The translations under genes were made by a program, and so were the position numbers. A stretch of 29,976 bases of DNA from a virus. The notes beneath the pieces were generated by a model. It worked only from the letters and a program-made list of their open reading frames with translations, had not been told where the DNA came from and made no database searches. The stretch lies in the IMG/VR virus record IMGVR_UViG_3300045988_110429, positions 1 through 29,976 of that record. One strand, written 5' to 3'. How positions within the stretch are numbered: the stretch's first letter is position 1; every line of letters begins with the position of its first letter. Shown here one piece after another: positions 2,412 through 20,057 of the stretch.

Positions 2412-4304
2412 ATGACGCAAGAATATAAAGAAGCATTATTAAAGTATCTAACTGGTACAATTAAAGAAGAAGATGAAAGTGGAAACTTGGGTAAAATAAT
2501 TGCTTATTATGAAAATATAGATAATGTTGCTAATAATCTAAAAACATATTTAGATACTAATTTAGGTTCTGCTTATACGGTCGTAGATGTATTACAATCT
2601 GAAAGTTATGATAAGTATTTACTTTATGGTTCAAGAAGAGTAAGTGGTACAAATTATGGATGGATATTAATAACAGATAGCAAATATAATCCTATTAAAT
2701 TAATTACTCATTATCAAACGGGCACTACTGACGAATTCTTATTAGGTAGGTTTTTAAGACTTGAATTAGATGAAAAAAATCAGGTATATGGTGTTGATTA
2801 TTATCCGCAAACACAAAAATATAGATTTATAATGATGAATAATATATTAGCAACCGAGGAATTAGTTTTAAGACAATCTTATAATTTACCTGATGAAATA
2901 TCAGGAATGACTGGATATCAGGTAACTAAAAACCCAACAAGTGCAGTATATTTAATTGCAGGTATAATATTTCAAGGTAATATTAATCAACCTAAAGTTG
3001 CTAAATTAACAGTTAATGTCGGATCTGAAAATGAGTGGGTATATTATGAATACGCTGGTTCATTGTTAGGAGCAGAGGGAAATTTATCAGATATATTCGC
3101 TAAATGGGATAATGATAATGTTCAATTTAAAATGAGTGCATTTAGTGAAAGCCAATTATTAATTTATTATAGTTTTTATCAAGACAATCAAAACTTAATT
3201 GGTTCTGAATTATATAATATTGGCGAAAATTGGATAACTTCTACAATACATAGTTCATCATCTATAATAGCAGATGAAGATACTTATTATTACGGAGTTC
3301 ACGCTACTGCTGATGGCGAAGAAGTAATGGCTATCTTTGAAATAAAAAACAATATTCAAAGTTTTGTATGGGCATTCCCACTTACTGGGTCTACAACGAG
3401 TGATACTAACTTAAATATTAATTTAAGAATATTAAATGGTACATTATTTTATCTTGCTACACTTCCAGGCAGTGAAACAAATAAATATAGTAAATTGCAA
3501 GGCTTATATAGAGAGAATGTAGTAGATACAAATACCTATGTAGCCGAAAATTTAGATTTGACGTCTTATTTATCTTTCTTCACAGTATTAAATGTATATA
3601 ATTTATACATAGTAAATATTCAACAAGATAATACGTTATATTATGCAAAAGTATTATATAATCCTGCAATTAACTTTAGACCAAATTCAACTGGTTATAA
3701 TAATCCAAATGACTTAAAACCTTTATCAATGAGTTTATTTCAAGGTAATGATATTCTATTTAATAGAAGCCTTTATAATCTAACTATAAATGGTTCAATT
3801 GCCACGGCAACTATTGAAGTACCAAACACTATGTTAAATAATATAAATATAAATAAAGAAAATCTAATAGGTAATCATTACTTACAAATCACTAACAATA
3901 CAGATAGTATTACAACGAATGAATATGAAACATTACATATAAATTCAATAAATACTTTATCTATGATAAATGAGGATACAGGCGTTACAAATCCACAAGG
4001 TGCGTCAAGACTAAATTTATCAGTTAATAATAAGCAAGATTATACTCAAACTATTGCAGATAAATTAAAATTCAATTATAATGATAATAGTAGCAGTATA
4101 ATAAAAATAGACGTACCTAGTCAAGTTGAAATAATAAACAATATGGCTATATACACAATAGATATATATATTCCAAGTGATAAGACTGTTAGTAACATTC
4201 AATTCATAAGTGATGATGAAACAACAGTTTATCAAACAATAGATAATCTTACATTTGAAAGTGGTAAGGCTTATACCTTAACTCAAATGTTAGAAGTAGT
4301 TTAG
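2412..4304 (+). CDS. Tail-associated or receptor-binding protein candidate (630 aa)
   Basis: GGAGG RBS 7 nt upstream of the ATG. Sits between the large tail protein and the fibre gene. N/T/S/Y-rich beta-type composition typical of host-recognition proteins. No specific family recognised. Confidence 0.4.
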   Translation: MTQEYKEALLKYLTGTIKEEDESGNLGKIIAYYENIDNVANNLKTYLDTNLGSAYTVVDVLQSESYDKYLLYGSRRVSGTNYGWILITDSKYNPIKLITHYQTGTTDEFLLGRFLRLELDEKNQVYGVDYYPQTQKYRFIMMNNILATEELVLRQSYNLPDEISGMTGYQVTKNPTSAVYLIAGIIFQGNINQPKVAKLTVNVGSENEWVYYEYAGSLLGAEGNLSDIFAKWDNDNVQFKMSAFSESQLLIYYSFYQDNQNLIGSELYNIGENWITSTIHSSSSIIADEDTYYYGVHATADGEEVMAIFEIKNNIQSFVWAFPLTGSTTSDTNLNINLRILNGTLFYLATLPGSETNKYSKLQGLYRENVVDTNTYVAENLDLTSYLSFFTVLNVYNLYIVNIQQDNTLYYAKVLYNPAINFRPNSTGYNNPNDLKPLSMSLFQGNDILFNRSLYNLTINGSIATATIEVPNTMLNNININKENLIGNHYLQITNNTDSITTNEYETLHINSINTLSMINEDTGVTNPQGASRLNLSVNNKQDYTQTIADKLKFNYNDNSSSIIKIDVPSQVEIINNMAIYTIDIYIPSDKTVSNIQFISDDETTVYQTIDNLTFESGKAYTLTQMLEVV

Positions 4305-5429: not shown

Positions 5430-6192
5430 TTTAGCCACTATCTTCGTTCCTGCTTATTCAGGAAACTATACTCAAGGTAGAAGAGGAAATAAGATAAGTA
5501 AAATTACAGTGCATCATATGGCTGGTGTAATGTCAGCAACACAGTGCGGTGCATTATGGCAAAGAAAAGGACGTAGAGGCTCATCTCATTATGGTATAGG
5601 TAATGATGGTGCTATTGGTAATTATGTAGATGAAAATAACATTGCTTGGACTGATAGCAACTGGAAATCAAATTGTACATCTGTTACAATTGAAACTTCA
5701 AATAATGCTCGTGGTGGAGATTGGACTGTAAGTGATGCAGCTTTAAGTTCATTAATAAAATTATGTGCTGATATTGCTAAAAGAAATGGATTAGGTACTT
5801 TAGTGACTGGCAAAAACTTAACTTGGCATAGTATGTATACTAGCACTACTTGTCCTGGAAATTATTTAAGAAGTAAAATGCAATATATTGCTGATGAAGC
5901 TAATAAAATAAATAATCGTTCTGTTGTAGTACCTATTCCTGTAAAGAACACATTCTTACCACCAAGAGGTTACTTTAAACGTGGAGATAATGATGTCAAC
6001 GTAGGTAAAATAGCTTCATTTATGTATAAAACATTTCCTAGATATACCAAAAGAGCAGCCTTAGGAAATTTATATGGTCCAAACCTAATTGCGAGTATAA
6101 AAGAATTTCAAAGAAGGACAGGTTTAGTAGATGATGGTTGTACAGGAGAAAAGACTTTAGCTAAATTAGTCAAATATGGTTTTAGATACTAG
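5416..6192 (+). CDS. Endolysin: N-acetylmuramoyl-L-alanine amidase (Amidase_2 / PGRP fold) with a C-terminal PG_binding_1 domain
   Basis: Contains the Zn-ligand pattern HHMAG...H...C (TVHHMAG, WHSMYTSTTCPG). C-terminal LGNLYGPNLIASIKEFQRRTGLVDDGCTGEKTLAKL is a peptidoglycan-binding repeat. I chose the ATG at 5416 (GGAG 9 nt upstream) over the track start at 5383. Confidence 0.85.
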   Translation: MGKSSLATIFVPAYSGNYTQGRRGNKISKITVHHMAGVMSATQCGALWQRKGRRGSSHYGIGNDGAIGNYVDENNIAWTDSNWKSNCTSVTIETSNNARGGDWTVSDAALSSLIKLCADIAKRNGLGTLVTGKNLTWHSMYTSTTCPGNYLRSKMQYIADEANKINNRSVVVPIPVKNTFLPPRGYFKRGDNDVNVGKIASFMYKTFPRYTKRAALGNLYGPNLIASIKEFQRRTGLVDDGCTGEKTLAKLVKYGFRY

Positions 6193-6208
6193 TTTCACGT
6201 GAAACATA

Positions 6209-6236
6209 AGAGATAGAAATATCTCTTTTTTATTTT
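6209..6236 (+). terminator. Rho-independent terminator after the lysis cassette
   Basis: AGAGATA-gaaa-TATCTCT, a 7-bp stem with a GAAA loop, followed by TTTTTTATTTT. It is preceded by the 14-bp palindrome GTTTCACGTGAAAC. Confidence 0.75.
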
Positions 6237-6268
6237 GTAAATAAATTGAAAAAGTTTTCAAAAAAGTA

Positions 6269-6296
6269 TTGACATATCCCCCGAAAAGAGTATAAT
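6269..6296 (+). promoter_or_regulatory. Sigma-A promoter P1: TTGACA-16-TATAAT
   Basis: Perfect -35 and -10 hexamers read directly from the sequence. It sits at the head of the early small-ORF array. Confidence 0.7.
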
Positions 6297-6320
6297 AGTA
6301 AGTGTTAGGAGGAAGAAAAA

Positions 6321-6413
6321 ATGAAAAAAATTGTTTTAAAAGGCAACTTAACTGAAATAATTAATCAGTTAAAAGAATTACAAAAAACAAAAAAATATGT
6401 AAGGGAGATATAA
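6321..6413 (+). CDS. Small 30-aa ORF
   Basis: AGGAGG RBS 9 nt upstream of the ATG, and it is the first ORF after P1. The hairpin GTAAGGGAG...CTCCCCTTAC overlaps its stop codon. Confidence 0.3.
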   Translation: MKKIVLKGNLTEIINQLKELQKTKKYVREI

Positions 6414-6449
6414 AACTCCCCTTACATTAATAAAGAAAGGAAGATGAAT

Positions 6450-8913: not shown

Positions 8914-9348
8914 ATGAATAAAGATGTATCACTTAAAAGTGATTTAAAAACATTTAATATTGATATTGATGATATTGAATTTAACCCACATTTTTTTGAA
9001 ACACTACAAGAAGCAATAGATAAAATGAGAGAAGAAACTTTATCAAAAAACTTGGAAGTTGTATTAAATAACAATTTAATAAAAGCAAGATATAAACCTA
9101 CAAATTATAGAACAATTCTAGATTGTAGAGTTTCTTATGCAGACTTAGAAAAATCAGTATCATTTATTGTAAGACCTGACGAAAAGCCTAGTTATGAATG
9201 TTTAGAACAACAATGTAAAAGGCAAAAAGAAGTAATTGATAAAGTATATGAATTAATTAAACAACATATAAGAAAAGATGGTTTTTTAGAATTAAATGAG
9301 TGGCAAACTAGAGACTTGCTAGATATATTAAAAGAGGTGCAAGAATGA
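8914..9348 (+). CDS. Hypothetical protein (144 aa)
   Basis: AGGAGG RBS. Confidence 0.5.
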   Translation: MNKDVSLKSDLKTFNIDIDDIEFNPHFFETLQEAIDKMREETLSKNLEVVLNNNLIKARYKPTNYRTILDCRVSYADLEKSVSFIVRPDEKPSYECLEQQCKRQKEVIDKVYELIKQHIRKDGFLELNEWQTRDLLDILKEVQE

Positions 9349-13713: not shown

Positions 13714-13945
13714 ATATAGTTTTAACCAAGTAGATTTAGTTTTAGACCATTTGAAAAGAAAAGATCACATAACAACGTGGGAAGCATTTGAGTTATATGG
13801 AATAACGAGATTAAGTGCTAAAATTCATATATTACGCAAAGAAAATTATAAGATAACAAGCGTAAGTACTACAAGAAAAAATAGATATGGGCATATATGT
13901 ATATATAGCACTTATACGTTAGAGGCAGATAATGACGAGGCGTAG
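13706..13945 (+). CDS. HTH_39-type helix-turn-helix protein
   Basis: ITTWEAFELYGITRLSAKIHILRKENYKI matches the phage HTH_39 pattern. Confidence 0.45.
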   Translation: MSRYSFNQVDLVLDHLKRKDHITTWEAFELYGITRLSAKIHILRKENYKITSVSTTRKNRYGHICIYSTYTLEADNDEA

Positions 13946-14459
13946 TAAATTTTGTGAGTTTGACAAAGAAGCTAGAAAATTAATTAAAAAGCGTGATAAC
14001 AACGAATGTGTAATATGCCATAAAAAGGGTGCTTTACAGATTATGCACATATTTCTATCACGTGCAAAGGGTGGTAAAGGTTGTAAAGAAAACGGATGTC
14101 TAGGGTGTATTAAATGCCATAGTATAATGGATAATCCAATTGGAGATAAACAATTAAGACTTTCAAAACAATATCTAGAATATTGTAAAAAATACTTGAT
14201 TGAAAAAGAAAATATAAAAGACGTAAAAGTACTTATTGAAGATTTAAAATTTAAAAAAGAAAAATATTATGAAGAAAAAATAACGAACGCTTTAAAAGAA
14301 ATTGACTTACAAAAAAATAAAATTAATAGATGTAAACATTGCAAAATGTTAATCAAAAGTAATTCAAATAATAGTTCTATACCTAACTACTTTTGTAAGT
14401 ATAGAAAAATAAGATTAAGTAAAAATAATAAAGCGTGCAAATCATTTGCAAAAGAATAA
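13932..14459 (+). CDS. HNH endonuclease
   Basis: ECVICH...MHIFLSRAKGG...ENG..LGCIKCH follows the HNH pattern C-x2-C ... H-x...GG ... N ... C-x2-H. There are additional C-terminal CxxC pairs. Confidence 0.6.
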   Translation: MTRRSKFCEFDKEARKLIKKRDNNECVICHKKGALQIMHIFLSRAKGGKGCKENGCLGCIKCHSIMDNPIGDKQLRLSKQYLEYCKKYLIEKENIKDVKVLIEDLKFKKEKYYEEKITNALKEIDLQKNKINRCKHCKMLIKSNSNNSSIPNYFCKYRKIRLSKNNKACKSFAKE

Positions 14460-14685: not shown

Positions 14686-14840
14686 GAAGATATCAAAAAA
14701 ACTAGAATTCATCTTCCAATTATTGTTAACTTAAATAAATAATTTTTTTTATTAAAAAACTGTAACACCAATCTTTTATATTTTTTATAAATCCTAAACT
14801 ATTATAATGGTATGAGTTTGTTCTAGTGGGTTTGATACCA

Positions 14841-14869
14841 TTGACTTTTAAAGTAGGAAAGAGTATAAT
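14841..14869 (+). promoter_or_regulatory. Sigma-A promoter P4: TTGACT-17-TATAAT
   Basis: Read from the sequence. The -35 overlaps the 3' arm of the 8-bp inverted repeat AATGGTAT (14806-14813) / ATACCATT (14835-14842). Confidence 0.6.
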
Positions 14870-14875
14870 ATAATT

Positions 14876-14950
14876 ATGGTGTTAATGACGCACCAAATAT
14901 AATAAATTTAGTTTTCTTGTACGATTTGCAACCCTAGAGGTTGCTTTTTC
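14876..14950 (+). ncRNA. Candidate small RNA of about 75 nt (P4 to terminator)
   Basis: Predicted layout is a 5' hairpin GGTGT-taatgac-GCACC, then an AU-rich single-stranded stretch, then the intrinsic terminator. It carries no ORF longer than 8 codons. Confidence 0.4.
14928..14950 (+). terminator. Rho-independent terminator
   Basis: GCAACC-ctaga-GGTTGC followed by TTTTTC. Its 3' arm is the -35 of P5. Confidence 0.55.
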
Positions 14951-14969
14951 TGTATATATATGGTACAAT
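14941..14969 (+). promoter_or_regulatory. Sigma-A promoter P5: TTGCTT-17-TGgTACAAT, with an extended -10
   Basis: Read from the sequence. Confidence 0.5.
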
Positions 14970-14995
14970 TAATTTGTAGAAAGTAGGCGTGTGGT

Positions 14996-15130
14996 ATGAA
15001 AACAATAATTACTATAATATTAGCAATCGTTATAACAATAGGCTTATTATTGTTTAATATCGTTTGCTTTTTTTTACAAGAAGAGGAATATAAACGAAGA
15101 AAGGATGGAAAGAGCAAATATGACGTATGA
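14996..15130 (+). CDS. Toxin-like membrane peptide (44 aa): one TM helix plus a charged tail
   Basis: Hand translation gives MKTIITIILAIVITIGLLLFNIVCFFLQEEEYKRRKDGKSKYDV. It is absent from the track because it falls under the 60-aa cutoff. Its stop overlaps the start of the next gene. Confidence 0.4.
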   Translation: MKTIITIILAIVITIGLLLFNIVCFFLQEEEYKRRKDGKSKYDV

Positions 15131-16587: not shown

Positions 16588-16887
16588 ATGAATTTAGATA
16601 AAAAAATAAAATTATTAATTATTATTATTAATAGATTAGGAGTAGAAGTTAATTACGAAGTAGTAACTAAATATAGTAAAATATTTGATAGTATTAAAAG
16701 TGAATATTTTCTTAAGTTTTGGAAAAAGAAAAAATACAAAGATAAAAAAACTGGAGAGGACAAAGAAAAATATTATTGTGAAACAAAATCTTTCTATAGA
16801 ATAGACCAAGTGGCTAAATATCTATTAGCAATAAAAGAAAGCAAGGAGGAAGAAATGAATGGAAGAAAAGAAAAAGCAATTAAGTGA
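16588..16887 (+). CDS. Hypothetical protein (99 aa)
   Basis: Track ORF with a weak RBS. Confidence 0.4.
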   Translation: MNLDKKIKLLIIIINRLGVEVNYEVVTKYSKIFDSIKSEYFLKFWKKKKYKDKKTGEDKEKYYCETKSFYRIDQVAKYLLAIKESKEEEMNGRKEKAIK

Positions 16888-17314
16888 AAAAGATATTATA
16901 TTCTGTGAAGAATATATAAAAACTATGAATGCTAGTAAAAGTTATAGTTTAATTCATCCTACTTGCAAATATAGTACTTCTAGAACAGAGGGAGCGAAGC
17001 TACTTGCAAAGCCACACATACAAGAATATCTTCAGGAAAGATTTAGCAATATCAAAAATAAAAAAATAGCAGACGCTAATGAAGTATTAGAATTTTTAAC
17101 AAATACCTTACGAGGAGAAGTTAAAGACCAATTAGGGTTTGAAACTGCGGTAAAAGATAGAATAAAAGCAGGAGAATTATTAGGGAAAAGATATTCATTA
17201 TTTGAAGAAGAAAAAAACAAAAATAATTCATCACAAAGTGCTCCTCCAGTAATTAAACTAGAAGTAGTAGATAATAGTAAATTGGAGAGTGTGTTATATG
17301 AAGATAAGAAGTAA
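16859..17314 (+). CDS. terS: Terminase small subunit (Terminase_2-like)
   Basis: LSEKDIIFCEEYIKTMNASKSYSLIHPTCKYSTSRTEGAKLLAKPHIQEYLQER...ADANEVLEFLTNTLRGE matches the TerS pattern L-t-kQ-FC-eY...Na..A...gys...a...g-LL. AAGGAGG RBS. Confidence 0.7.
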   Translation: MEEKKKQLSEKDIIFCEEYIKTMNASKSYSLIHPTCKYSTSRTEGAKLLAKPHIQEYLQERFSNIKNKKIADANEVLEFLTNTLRGEVKDQLGFETAVKDRIKAGELLGKRYSLFEEEKNKNNSSQSAPPVIKLEVVDNSKLESVLYEDKK

Positions 17315-17654
17315 CAAGTATCACAACACCAAAGTTATCTATAATGGAATAAAGTTCGATAGTAAAAAAGAAAGAGATAGATATATTAATTTAAAACAAC
17401 TTCATAGTTTGGGGCAAATAGAAAGCCTAGAACTACAACCAAAATTCTTATTACTAGATACAATTCATTATAAAGGCAAAACATACCCTAAAACCTATTA
17501 TAAAGCCGATTTTAAGTACTTTGATAATGAAAAAGGTAAATATATCATAGAAGATGTTAAAAGTCCTATAACGGCAAAAGACAAAGTATATAGGCTTAAA
17601 ATAAAAATGTTATTAACAAAGTATCCTGATATAGAATTCGTTGAAGTAATATGA
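17298..17654 (+). CDS. DUF1064-like protein, a PD-(D/E)XK nuclease-fold family
   Basis: KYHNTKVIYNGIKFDSKKERDRY...LELQPKF and YKADFKY...IIEDVK match the DUF1064 pattern. Track start 17289 is a GTG. ATG at 17298 follows TTGGAGAG. Confidence 0.5.
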   Translation: MKIRSNKYHNTKVIYNGIKFDSKKERDRYINLKQLHSLGQIESLELQPKFLLLDTIHYKGKTYPKTYYKADFKYFDNEKGKYIIEDVKSPITAKDKVYRLKIKMLLTKYPDIEFVEVI

Positions 17655-18046
17655 TATAATTAATGTAGTGGAAAAAAGTAGCTATCTTCATAGGTAGCTT
17701 AGAATAGATATAAGAGCGAGCGTTAGGGCGGCTACGAAAACGTAAATCGGAGAGTAATTACCTCCAGAACGGTAGTCTATATCTATTCTATGGTGTCTAT
17801 AAGGCACGAAGAAATGCCCTAGAAATAGGGGAGTAACTTATACGCTGTATTTGTTATTCGAGATTGTTATATAACATTGCATTACCTTTAACAGGTAGTG
17901 TCTAGTGATATAAGACAGGTCTTTTAGTGTTAAACATAATAGTTTATAGGTATATCTATTTGATAGCACTTTAAACATAAAACCTATTTTTACCGTTATA
18001 TCATTAGACAGTATCTATTAAAGATACAAAGAAAGGAATTAAAATT
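17655..18046. other. Non-coding, locally GC-enriched structured region of 392 nt
   Basis: There is no ORF on either strand. An extended -10 promoter, TGaTATAAT, sits at 17652-17660. A GC-rich segment GAGCGAGCGTTAGGGCGGCTACG is present. TATCTAT occurs three times direct and once inverted, and GTCTATA twice direct. Several hairpins are present, including CCCTAgaaaTAGGG and GTATCTattaaAGATAC. Confidence 0.5.
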
Positions 18047-18490
18047 GTGGCTAGAAAGAAAGAAAAAGAAGAATTAGAAAATAAAAATCAAGAAGAAACA
18101 AATGTAGAAATAACAGAAGAACCAACTGAAGAAGTAGAACAAAGTTCAGACAACCCAGTTGAAATTGAAGCAGATAAAAACATAGAAAAAACTGTAGAAC
18201 CATCTGTATCAGAAGAACCAATAGAGAACACAGTAGAAGATATTGAAACTATGGATGAATTAGAAATTCCTATAAAAAAAGAAAATATAGAATTGATATC
18301 AACAGATAATAAGCCTATCAATAACAAGGTAAAAGATGAACCTATGAGTATTCCTGACAAGTTCGTTAAACAACCACCAAAGAAACCTAATGAAGAAACT
18401 AAAATAAGAATGTGTAAAGGTAGAGTTTATAAACCATTAGGAAATGGATATGGTATGTTTTCAGATGATGGGTCAGTATTTAAAATATAG
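18047..18490 (+). CDS. Highly acidic protein (147 aa) with a GTG start
   Basis: The N-terminal 100 aa or so are dominated by E and D. The C-terminal 40 aa are basic (KQPPKKPNEETKIRMCKGRVYKPLGNGYG). AAAGGAA RBS 9 nt upstream. Confidence 0.5.
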   Translation: MARKKEKEELENKNQEETNVEITEEPTEEVEQSSDNPVEIEADKNIEKTVEPSVSEEPIENTVEDIETMDELEIPIKKENIELISTDNKPINNKVKDEPMSIPDKFVKQPPKKPNEETKIRMCKGRVYKPLGNGYGMFSDDGSVFKI

Positions 18491-18499
18491 GAGGCAATT

Positions 18500-18736
18500 A
18501 TGGAATTTATAAAGATAAATAAAGATAGATATTTAATAAAAGATAGTAACAATATCATAGTATCTGCAAAAGAAAAATTAGAATTAGAAAAAAAAGAATT
18601 AATCATAAAAGATGTACAGAGTAATGAATGTCAAGCAGAAACTACTCAAAAGATAGTAAAAATAGATAGGAAGTTAAAGAATGGAAACAAATCTAAAACT
18701 AACACTATCGAAGAAACAAAACCAGCTACTGAATGA
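18500..18736 (+). CDS. Hypothetical protein (78 aa)
   Basis: AGGAGG RBS. Confidence 0.45.
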   Translation: MEFIKINKDRYLIKDSNNIIVSAKEKLELEKKELIIKDVQSNECQAETTQKIVKIDRKLKNGNKSKTNTIEETKPATE

Positions 18737-20057
18737 TATAATCAGTCCTAACAAGACTGAAATATATGTATTAGGTAGTACACAGAGTGGTAAAACATTT
18801 GATATATGTCTAGCCACTTTAATGTATGCACAAGCGTTATATAATTATAACCCTAACGAAACATATTTTGGGTCAATAACAGGATGGAGTCTTGAAACAT
18901 TAAAAGGTAATATACTAGAGCCTACGAAGAAATTCCTCGAAGATATGGGCTTGAAGAAAGACAAAGATTATATATTAAAATGGCAATCAGATGATAAGTA
19001 TTTAGAAATATATAATATAAGATTTTATTTCTTTGGTTTTAATAATGCGTTGTCATTCAACAAGATACTAGGTAAACCTTTAATATTTGAATGGATAGAT
19101 GAAAGTGCAAGAATTTACTCGCAAGATAATTTACGTGAACCATTCAATGAATTTCCAGGTCGTCAAGTAAGTTATGCTAATCATCCATACCGAAAGACAA
19201 TACATTCATTTAACGTTGAGGGTGGAGATAATCATCCATATAAGCACGATTATATAGATGGCAAACCAAATGCTATACACTACACCTTTTATCCGTATGA
19301 TAATCCTAAAATCAATACAGAAGAAGCAATGCGTAATGTATTAGAAATGTTTCCACCAGGTAATTTAAGGGAACAAAAGATATTCTGTAAATGGGTACTT
19401 GCTAGTGGTAGAGTATTTACTAAAATAAATATAATAAATAATCTTGATGGTTATATGTTCCGTGAAATAGGAGTAGGAATAGACTATGGTTCTGTTCACG
19501 CCACTGCATTCGTGCCAATAGCGTTAGTTTATGATAAAATTAATAAGCAATGGAAAATAATACGTTTGGAATGCTATTATCATAATCCTAATGAGGAAAA
19601 AGATAATCCAACGACAGAATATTTTAGCAAACAATTAAGATTATTCTTATTGTATTTAAAACAAAGATATCCACACGTTCCAATTACTACAATGGTATTA
19701 GATAGTGCAGCTGCTCACTTTCATAATAGATTAGTAGCCGATAATATACAACACGATTTAACAAACAAGAAAAACTTGACAGTTAATGAGGGTGTTCAGT
19801 ATATGCAATCAATGTTTTATAAAGAATACTTATTAATATATAAAAAACGTTCAATAAAACATTTCAATGATGATGGAACGCCAATATATAGTGGTAAAGA
19901 TGAGGGAGTTTTGGAGTTAGAAAGTTATAGATATGACACTGTAAAGAGTGCCAAAACAGGGGTAGATTGTTATGTAAAAGAATTTGATGACCATAACGAC
20001 GCTTTAAGATATATTCTAATAGAGTTTAAAGAGAGTAATAGAGCCCCTACTGTATAG
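18681..20057 (+). CDS. terL: Terminase large subunit (PBSX / Terminase_3-like)
   Basis: Walker A motif VLGSTQSGKT. The nuclease domain contains GVGIDYGSVHATAF. AGGAAG RBS. Confidence 0.8.
   Translation: METNLKLTLSKKQNQLLNDIISPNKTEIYVLGSTQSGKTFDICLATLMYAQALYNYNPNETYFGSITGWSLETLKGNILEPTKKFLEDMGLKKDKDYILKWQSDDKYLEIYNIRFYFFGFNNALSFNKILGKPLIFEWIDESARIYSQDNLREPFNEFPGRQVSYANHPYRKTIHSFNVEGGDNHPYKHDYIDGKPNAIHYTFYPYDNPKINTEEAMRNVLEMFPPGNLREQKIFCKWVLASGRVFTKINIINNLDGYMFREIGVGIDYGSVHATAFVPIALVYDKINKQWKIIRLECYYHNPNEEKDNPTTEYFSKQLRLFLLYLKQRYPHVPITTMVLDSAAAHFHNRLVADNIQHDLTNKKNLTVNEGVQYMQSMFYKEYLLIYKKRSIKHFNDDGTPIYSGKDEGVLELESYRYDTVKSAKTGVDCYVKEFDDHNDALRYILIEFKESNRAPTV

Follow-up and report, generated by a model that had tools for sequence, protein, structure and literature searches.

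Several described systems come close to the element reported here. Non-coding repeat DNA lies near the terminase genes at the pac site of phage SPP1 and at the cos sites of HNH-dependent phages, while Correia elements and other bacterial miniature inverted-repeat transposable elements (MITEs) exist in many copies, carry inverted-repeat arms of about 25 bp around a variable interior and form hairpins once transcribed. Phage T4 encodes the species 1 and 2 RNAs (rnaC/rnaD), non-tRNA small RNAs that lie among the phage tRNA genes in the same orientation and have some tRNA-like features, and for which we know of no function. The TMERs of murine gammaherpesvirus 68 fuse a viral tRNA-derived element to other RNA domains and are made through a pathway involving Pol III and tRNase Z. 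YrlA and the other bacterial Y RNAs, found in bacteria and phages, are modular molecules in which a long conserved stem is joined to a tRNA-like domain (Chen et al. 2014, PMC4201824), and the ROOL and GOLLD RNAs are associated with tRNAs and prophages (Weinberg et al. 2017, PMC5737381). Fremin et al. (2023, PMC10690425) have reported 10,006 anonymous phage RNA candidates, including tRNA-like and palindromic ones from IMG/VR. In this work we analyze a non-coding gap at positions 17655-18046 of a 29,976-nt stretch of virus DNA (IMG/VR record IMGVR_UViG_3300045988_110429, positions 1 to 29,976; hereafter, the window), bounded by the stop codon of a DUF1064 gene (17654) and the GTG start codon (18047) of a gene for a 147-aa acidic protein.

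We consider it likely that this gap is a non-coding RNA (ncRNA) island, composed of two tandem copies and one collapsed remnant of a conserved three-way-junction phage RNA cassette with a tRNA-derived scaffold. The cassette has a constant architecture that is conserved through compensatory changes and is specific to one strand; it is spread over unrelated phages, keeps company with tRNA genes and ROOL RNA, and is independent of the terminase. Each of these properties is documented below, followed by the alternatives against which the proposal has to be weighed.

As a preliminary description of this DNA had stated, the gap is without coding open reading frames (ORFs) and locally enriched in GC. 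The only ORFs in it are minus-strand ones of 31-46 aa, and GC is 0.319 in the gap and 0.38 in 17700-17899, against 0.287 in the whole window. A hidden gene exposed by reassignment of a single stop codon was ruled out, since several TAA and TAG stops occur in all six frames of the gap. The plus-strand RNA of the gap folds at -108 kcal/mol (z = -5.66 against shuffles; minus strand, z = -3.4), and the fold of the other large gap in the window, at 14686-15104, reaches z = -1.5. Two long inverted repeats with mutually similar arms dominate the gap (17690-17712/17778-17800 and 17883-17913/17996-18026). Read against the comparative data, the gap resolves into two tandem modules of one design, here called M1 and M2, plus a collapsed vestige. 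From 5' to 3', the design runs through a hairpin H1 (8 bp), a stem S of 13 bp with a variable cargo at its tip, a linker of 2 nt and a second hairpin, H2 (6 bp).

Module M1 (17680-17807, plus strand) is a complete copy of the sequence type that we designate type A, running through H1, S, cargo, S' and H2, and its arms fit the family consensus with 22 of 25 positions paired. Its two halves are matched by nhmmer (5' half, E = 6e-6; 3' half, E = 3e-8), and its geometry agrees with alignment A3. H1 (17680-17699; AGCTATCT-TCAT-AGGTAGCT) pairs at 8 of its 8 positions and is followed directly by the 5' strand of S (17700-17712; TAGAATAGATATA), whose last seven nucleotides, AGATATA, form the 5' strand of a tRNA acceptor stem in relatives. 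The cargo, called X (17713-17777), is a GC-rich segment of 65 nt. The 3' strand of S (17778-17790; TATATCTATTCTA) comprises the corresponding acceptor 3' strand TATATCT, a discriminator-like A and the start of a trailer, and a TG linker separates it from H2 (17793-17807; GTGTCT-ATA-AGGCAC, 6 bp). The spacer between the two modules (17808-17879) holds small hairpins (CCCTAGAAATAGGG at 17817-17830, and GAGTAAC..GTTATTC) and no canonical plus-strand terminator.

Module M2 (17880-18027, plus strand) has the architecture of M1 in a different sequence, the M2-type, with H1 paired at 8 of 8 and H2 at 6 of 6 positions in the type-A register. It is composed of H1 (17880-17900; CATTACCT-TTAAC-AGGTAGTG, 8 bp), the 5' strand of S (17901-17913; TCTAGTGATATAA), an AT-rich cargo of 82 nt (17914-17995) that recurs identically in another locus (L165; loci compared with the window carry L numbers), the 3' strand of S (17996-18008; TTATATCATTAGA), a CA linker and H2 (18011-18027; GTATCT-ATTAA-AGATAC). 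When the arms are paired with each other, 23 of 25 positions match. Within the cargo, comparison with type-A arms leads us to infer a collapsed third module at 17943-17969 on the plus strand, in which the start of a 5' arm is fused to a 3' arm (TTTATAGGTA|TATCTATTTGATAGCAC). A Shine-Dalgarno-like AAAGGAA and the GTG start of the acidic protein follow (18032-18049), the GTG lying 19 nt past H2.

Both modules thus present the same set of traits: an H1 of about 8 bp, its loop A/U-rich and its 3' strand AGGUAG, which runs directly into the 5' strand of S; an S of 12-13 bp with GAUAUA/UAUAUC at its distal end, enclosing the variable cargo; and, after a 2-nt linker, an H2 of about 6 bp (GURYYU / ARRYAC), whose loop is likewise rich in A and U. 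M1 precedes M2 by 223 nt, and both, together with all neighboring genes, lie on the plus strand. The features listed in the preliminary description are all present and all turn out to be pieces of these modules. TATCTAT occurs three times directly (17780, 17953 and 18012) and once inverted (17704), in strands of S, in H2 of M2 and in the vestige; at four copies per 392 nt, against 30 per 30 kb, the local excess is about 10-fold. The two copies of GTCTATA, at 17775 and 17795, are two of the four in the window. The GC-rich block and the GGAG..CTCC hairpin belong to the cargo of M1, and the third hairpin, GTATCTattaaAGATAC, is H2 of M2.

The helices of these modules bear signs of RNA-type selection. 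Covariation was counted on normalized mini-modules for type A (n = 85) and with a script of our own for the M2-type set, where MAFFT broke register. Across the 85 type-A mini-modules, 90.5% of the cells of the three-way junction are paired and 22 of its 27 pairs have changed on both sides, values reached by none of 500 shuffles, and sliding the partner lowers pairing to 29-56%. H1 shows compensatory changes at all eight pairs, and S is 97% paired with 11 of 13 pairs changed on both sides. Complete pairing of H1 (8/8) is found in 34 of the 85 modules against none for a control flank displaced by 20 nt, and complete pairing of H2 (6/6) in 52 against 6 for the control. Individual substitutions tell the same story, with H2 covarying from CU/AG to UC/GG in 26 sequences and fully compensated haplotypes that include GCAAU/GUUGC, GCUGG/CCAGC, GUUGCC/GGCAAC and GCCAUC/GGUGGC. 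In the M2-type set, for which the search fixed only H2 and left H1 and S free, 96.5% of positions are paired, against 70% in shuffles, and 18 of 21 pairs have changed on both sides. The mismatches are strand-specific as well: on the plus strand, G-U outnumbers A-C by 100 to 32 in H1, 95 to 4 in H2 and 119 to 8 in the M2-type set. The geometry (8 bp, 12-13 bp, 2-nt linker, 6 bp) is kept in four types of distinct sequence.

The same bases admit a second fold, a rod in which the arms pair with each other around a conserved G.G mismatch, whereas the three-way junction pairs them with the flanks outside. In M1, the rod would bring the conserved G residues at 17697 and 17793 opposite each other. Essentially no compensatory change is seen in the basal rod of the type-A set, in which the search pattern had fixed the 3' arm. 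On energetic grounds, the modules may adopt the rod or switch between rod and three-way junction, and the rod form could be a substrate of RNase III. H1 resembles a boxA antitermination sequence and contains the ACCU/AGGU recognition sequence of Mini-III.

The family extends well beyond this phage. The type-A set was assembled by exact search with a 17-mer from the 3' arm of M1 (TTCTATGGTGYYTATAA), pairing each match with its best upstream partner. The 17-mer occurs in more than 119 viral contigs from many samples, with conservation reaching well past the pattern itself. The resulting distribution of pairing is bimodal: 88 distinct type-A modules pair at 20-24 of 25 positions (87 of them at 22-24), and the remaining candidates, taken to be chance matches, at 15-19 of 25. 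Type-A arms are nearly constant (TTATAGGTAGCATAGAGTAGATATA and TATATCTATTCTATGGTGCTTATAA), and their cargos, of 16-241 nt, are mutually unrelated. An exact search with a 19-mer from H2 of M2 (CAGTATCTATTAAAGATAC) gave 64 matches in viral contigs, corresponding to about 58 distinct M2-type modules with cargos of up to about 340 nt. Together, the two exact-pattern scans place modules in 15 metagenome-assembled genomes (MAGs) and in well over 100 contigs of uncultivated phages from gut and rumen. The MAG contigs carry the type-A arm, come from human gut, Hadza gut, rumen and yak, and are labelled as uncultured 'Tenericutes', Bacilli, Clostridia, Christensenellaceae, Ruminococcaceae and Coprobacillus; these labels are our only indication of the hosts. 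BLAST against 50,697 deposited phages detected nothing related to the gap, to the 7 kb around it or to a consensus arm, so the family is known only from uncultivated sequences.

Wherever the two types co-occur closely, type A lies upstream of the M2-type on the same strand (23 of 23 cases), at a spacing of 223-930 nt that is 223 nt in the window. Cargo X recurs almost base for base, inside the same frame and with different flanks, in L087, L129, L130 and L150, making five phages with the window; an exact search with the GC-rich block found no match, and one with another part of the cargo found four. A canonical intrinsic terminator, with hairpin and U-run, follows the X-bearing module in L150, and hairpin-forming sequences follow it in L087 and L129. 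Another cargo, of 68 nt (..GGTTAGGTTCGCC..TTTCTAACAGGCTAAC..), occurs in type-C frames of the L002 group (e.g., at gap positions 197-326 of L012) and also in M2-type frames of L158, L183 and L191. The presence of one cargo in two scaffold types shows that frames exchange cargos.

The scan of Rfam covariance models that the preliminary description had proposed matched no family and gave no gathering-level match in the window. Gathering-level scans with Rfam 15, covering the window, 11 related loci, 14 module loci and 15 MAG loci, contain no family for the modules; their matches are limited to tRNA (a cargo in L024 and neighboring genes) and nearby ROOL. Relaxing the threshold to E values of up to 10 in three gaps brought out no family either; in the window it gave only chance-level matches, and ROOL, GOLLD, phi29 pRNA, known riboswitches and known ribozymes are not recognized there. 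The module family is undescribed, without an entry in Rfam 15; its kin in kind are the phage tRNA-related small RNAs, and its modular design is unusual. The 10,006 anonymous candidates reported earlier (PMC10690425) may include the motif.

The scaffold is related to tRNA through its stem. In L024, the type-A cargo matches the Rfam tRNA model at 46.8 bits (E = 1e-6), and the acceptor stem and discriminator of this tRNA-like gene (9015-9138, minus strand) read AGAUAUA...UAUAUCU-A; that is, they are the distal 7 bp of S and the A that follows. The acceptor, D and T arms of this gene are normal, and a 67-nt insert occupies its anticodon region. ARAGORN reports tRNA-like cargos that start from the acceptor position of S in L018, L024, L025, L045, L071 and L116, representing at least four unrelated cargo families; those of L018, L025, L071 and L116 are 'tRNA-Val-like' and carry inserts of 46-50 nt. 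Cargos bearing a T arm also sit inside M2-type frames (L180 and L197). Most cargos in the family are not recognizable as tRNA. As the distal part of S and the adjoining A serve as acceptor stem and discriminator in the tRNA-like relatives, the family as a whole looks tRNA-derived from its sequences.

Genomic context also favors the RNA-island reading. The ORFs nearest to modules lie on the strand of the module in 135 cases and on the opposite strand in 21; the commonest neighbors are HNH endonuclease (PF01844), two families of terL, terS-like HTH proteins and DUF1064, and the usual site is the boundary between replication or regulation genes and packaging genes. A canonical tRNA gene is found within 300 nt of 20 of 87 modules, against a locus-wide density of 0.04 per kb, and all 22 tRNA genes within 1 kb are co-oriented with the module. 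In two MAG contigs, labelled Ruminococcaceae and Clostridia, ROOL RNA (RF03087) adjoins modules of type A and M2-type together with several tRNA genes (L140, 2126-2729, and L148, 3259-3838; 151 and 168 bits, respectively), in line with published work in which ROOL and GOLLD accompany tRNAs and prophages (PMC5737381). An intrinsic terminator lies within 70 nt downstream of 16 of 81 modules, compared with 2 of 81 control stretches, and a few modules abut a Shine-Dalgarno sequence and start codon. Promoter-like sites upstream of modules show no enrichment, leaving independent module promoters unproven.

Within the lineage of this phage, the gap itself varies. TerL is 76-90% identical to that of the window in fifteen IMG/VR contigs, 14 of which span the junction between DUF1064 and the acidic-protein gene (L007 starts inside the latter). 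The junction is non-coding in all 14, measures 109-727 nt and is much less conserved than the genes on either side. In 13 of the 14 it is a mosaic of module blocks, identified by folding and hairpin scan as long hairpins of the module kind, with one to four blocks per gap drawn from sequence types A, B, C and M2; the 109-nt gap of L001 has no module. The last module in these gaps always stands directly before the ribosome-binding site of the acidic-protein homologue. Between the window and the gap of L009, the best shared blocks measure 54 nt (98% identity) and 37 nt (97% identity). L005, L006 and L009 all conserve the opening 22 nt of the gap (17655-17676); these adjoin an extended -10 promoter-like sequence on the plus strand (TGATATAAT, 17652-17660), which had been pointed out previously, overlaps the DUF1064 stop codon and, as read from the sequence, is a candidate start for a transcript of the island.

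Three further differences were noted among these relatives. In L011, an insertion of about 115-120 nt relative to L003 occupies the loop of an H2 hairpin (gap positions 427-541; locus 3921-4035), with TTATAA on both flanks and inverted ends of its own (ATATAAAAG...CTTTATAT), and could represent either a mobile insertion or a nested module. In L001 (4370-5073), a 164-aa ORF (METIICDNCKKEF...) is inserted at the 5' end of DUF1064, with codons 1-25 of DUF1064 duplicated upstream of it; the insertion looks like one of the homing-endonuclease type. The terL ORF of L010 and L012 (6001-7602) encodes 533 aa, against 458 aa elsewhere, and its similarity to the TerL of the window ends at residue 441, a possible C-terminal replacement or frameshift.

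Two alternatives tie the gap to the genes that follow it. The preliminary description had favored a pac site or an HNH-dependent cos site, at which phased TATCTAT and GTCTATA repeats would be bound by TerS. The gap does lie just upstream of terL and near terS, its short repeats are in local excess, the genome carries an HNH gene, and in other phages modules often adjoin HNH and terminase genes. The repeats, however, are strands of covarying helices, and the modules accompany unrelated terminases and terL families and also occur in tRNA/ROOL islands. Nor do modules track TerS: the window and L009 share M1-type and M2-type modules, yet the similarity of their TerS proteins is confined to the last 27 aa, and L001, whose TerS is 100% identical to that of L009 and whose TerL is 85% identical to that of the window (closest), has no module in its 109-nt gap or anywhere in its 13-kb locus (6 kb either side). 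The seven-fold range of gap length (109-727 nt) excludes phased binding sites, and the HNH gene at 13932-14459, whose presence had been correctly noted, is separated from terS further downstream by 2.4 kb and at least five ORFs, and does not stand immediately beside it as the likeness to HNH-dependent cos phages would have it. A pac or cos role is thus not supported by the sequence comparisons, and we find it barely credible. More serious, though still unlikely in our judgment, is the proposal that the modules, and M2 in particular, form a cis-acting mRNA leader of the late packaging operon (acidic protein and terL), working as a processing site, 5' stabilizer, antitermination element or switch. 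M2 ends 19 nt before the GTG with a Shine-Dalgarno-like sequence in between, in the relatives L002-L015 the module standing immediately before the homologous gene is always one of this architecture (type C), a few modules elsewhere also abut a Shine-Dalgarno sequence and start codon, modules commonly lie just upstream of HNH, terS or terL genes, no plus-strand terminator separates them from the operon in the window, and the two mutually exclusive folds are near in energy. Set against this, the downstream gene is inconsistent across phages, a terminator stands within 70 nt behind 20% of modules, many modules are followed by tRNA genes or by further modules, L165 carries the same M2 cargo and frame before a different downstream sequence, and L001 expresses the same operon without any module.

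The other two alternatives deny the modules a function as RNA. Arms that resemble terminal inverted repeats, presence, absence and shuffling among close relatives, identical arms around different interiors and an identical interior in different flanks, the collapsed copy at 17943-17969 and the TTATAA-flanked insertion in the H2 loop of L011 are what one might expect of selfish palindromic DNA, a MITE-like or hairpin-forming mobile element with terminal inverted repeats of about 25 bp. The orientation bias, in which genes are co-oriented by 135 to 21 and tRNAs by 22 to 0, and the invariable placement of type A upstream of the M2-type argue otherwise, as do mismatches that are of the G-U type on one strand only, compensatory changes in H1 and H2 that involve sequence beyond the inverted repeat, the fact that S doubles as acceptor stem in tRNA-like cargos, and the lack of both a recurrent transposase gene nearby and a target-site duplication at module edges; we regard selfish DNA as very unlikely. 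That the modules are instead decaying tRNA genes, non-functional relics of a phage tRNA island, would account for the tRNA-like cargos of some relatives, for the many cargos, both of those in the window included, that are unrecognizable, and for the existence of a collapsed copy. Decay is highly improbable in view of a scaffold that, with hairpins outside any would-be tRNA, is kept by compensatory changes in well over 100 phages, and of non-tRNA cargos such as X that are conserved almost base for base in five.

Several points nevertheless weigh against reading the gap as an island of modular RNAs. ARAGORN and Rfam find no tRNA in the window, and the cargos of M1 and M2 are not tRNA-like. No clear plus-strand terminator follows M1 or M2 in the window, and the modules may thus be part of a longer mRNA leader. 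The rod is close in energy to the three-way junction and competes with it thermodynamically. A covariance model of the mini-module (R1) could not bridge cargos of 65-82 nt, splitting M1, missing M2 and matching 6191-6251 instead; the failure of this model on the cargos means that the family was collected by exact patterns only, in a search that is not unbiased. Both the apparent conservation of sequence and the percentage of paired positions are inflated by the exact-pattern sets and by the choice of the best-pairing partner, and the shuffle statistics by relatedness among the sequences. That the modules are transcribed, where their RNAs end and how stable these are is all inferred.

If the gap is nonetheless such an island, its operation can be outlined. 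M1 and M2 would be transcribed on the plus strand, probably from the extended -10 at 17652-17660, and, given that the window shows no clear terminator, transcription would run on into the packaging operon. The modules may then accumulate, or be processed, as stable RNAs of about 130-150 nt, perhaps with ends defined by nucleases. This part of the preliminary description fares better than its packaging proposal: a structured RNA downstream of the extended -10 finds support, in the form of two modular units of that size in place of the single ncRNA of about 350 nt that had been suggested. The scaffold would provide stability or processing signals and the cargo would be the working part, such as the GC-rich 65-nt domain of M1, while homologous recombination at the conserved arms would swap cargos between phages. 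As to what the cargos do, tRNA mimicry, or decoys directed at host tRNA-directed enzymes, is one possibility, guessed from the origin and the neighbors of the modules. In a broader and distinctly more tentative form, we can imagine an unnamed class of modular 'carrier' RNAs in phages of low-GC gut and rumen Bacillota, whose swappable cargos (tRNA-like bodies or small GC-rich folds) would act in trans on host tRNA- or RNA-directed machinery, for instance as decoys against tRNA-cleaving defenses or as partners of ROOL-type RNAs.

The surroundings of the gap supply some further observations. The DUF1064 gene (17289-17654; PF06356, E = 4e-22) is preceded by terS (16859-17314), recognized by a Terminase_2 match and overlooked in the preliminary description; the HNH-like gene at 13932-14459 has a PHROG HNH match, and the acidic protein spans 18047-18490. 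Proteins at the terS position (window 16859-17314, L001 4021-4395, L009 4311-4685 and L002-L015) have at least 3-4 unrelated N-terminal parts and share their last 27 or so residues (...IKLEVVDNS.LESVLYEDKK), which looks like a swapped DNA-recognition domain on a constant tail, the tail presumably binding TerL. A 78-aa ORF (18500-18736) without a match in Pfam or PHROG overlaps the first 56 nt of terL (18681-20057) in another frame, and ORF and overlap alike are kept in all relatives, at about 70% identity. The genome had been described as otherwise packed end to end, which does not hold: further gaps of 419 nt (14686-15104) and 251 nt (6193-6443) exist. The former, with a GC content of 0.25, is probably not empty, as a good intrinsic terminator (GCAACCCTAGAGGTTGCTTTTT) lies in it with a hydrophobic ORF of about 36 aa (MKTIITIILAIVITIGLLLFNIVCFF...) behind. 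At 6191-6251, where the mini-module model gave its weak false match, a hairpin and T-run directly 3' of the amidase (endolysin) gene are probably a terminator.

If the proposal is right, a widespread RNA family is added to phage biology, one of unusual design in that a conserved scaffold related to an acceptor stem holds swappable inserts and is sited with tRNAs and ROOL in the poorly understood ncRNA islands of gut phages. It offers testable objects, with defined ends, a fold and conserved cargos, that bear on the role of phage tRNA-like and ornate RNAs. A practical consequence is that annotating repeats beside terminase genes as pac or cos sites calls for comparative or termini data.

Comparison with the systems introduced at the outset helps to define what the modules are. 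Unlike pac and cos sites, they vary independently of TerS and TerL and are common to phages with unrelated terminases, and one close relative does without them. They share with Correia elements and other MITEs their inverted arms, variable interior and many copies, but are orientation-biased, extend their RNA covariation into flanking hairpins, have no target duplication and can enclose tRNA-like bodies. The resemblance to T4 species 1 and 2 RNAs is one of functional analogy, with no relation in sequence or architecture, as the T4 RNAs lack a recurring H1-S-H2 scaffold that would accept interchangeable cargos. With the TMERs, and with engineered tRNA or three-way-junction display scaffolds, the modules have in common a tRNA-like part that would give processing or stability; TMERs belong to a eukaryotic virus, the comparison implies no homology, and any processing of the modules is putative. 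YrlA, like the modules, combines a long stem with a tRNA-like domain. Its 5' and 3' ends, however, lie in the Ro-binding stem, on the anticodon side (PMC4201824), with T and D arms on either side of a closed acceptor-like stem-loop, whereas the ends of the modules flank the acceptor stem, and identity with YrlA was rejected on account of this opposite topology. There is also no Rfam match even at E values of up to 10 and no GNCGAAN0-1G motif, and a partial scan of neighbor proteins found no gene for Ro (TROVE). ROOL and GOLLD have the niche of the modules, in that they too inhabit ncRNA islands of prophages and phages, beside the tRNA genes of Bacillota from gut and rumen. Rfam detects neither of them in the window, and the two designs are distinct: ROOL is an RNA of about 580 nt with multistem junctions and pseudoknots, and a module is a scaffold of about 65 nt plus its cargo.

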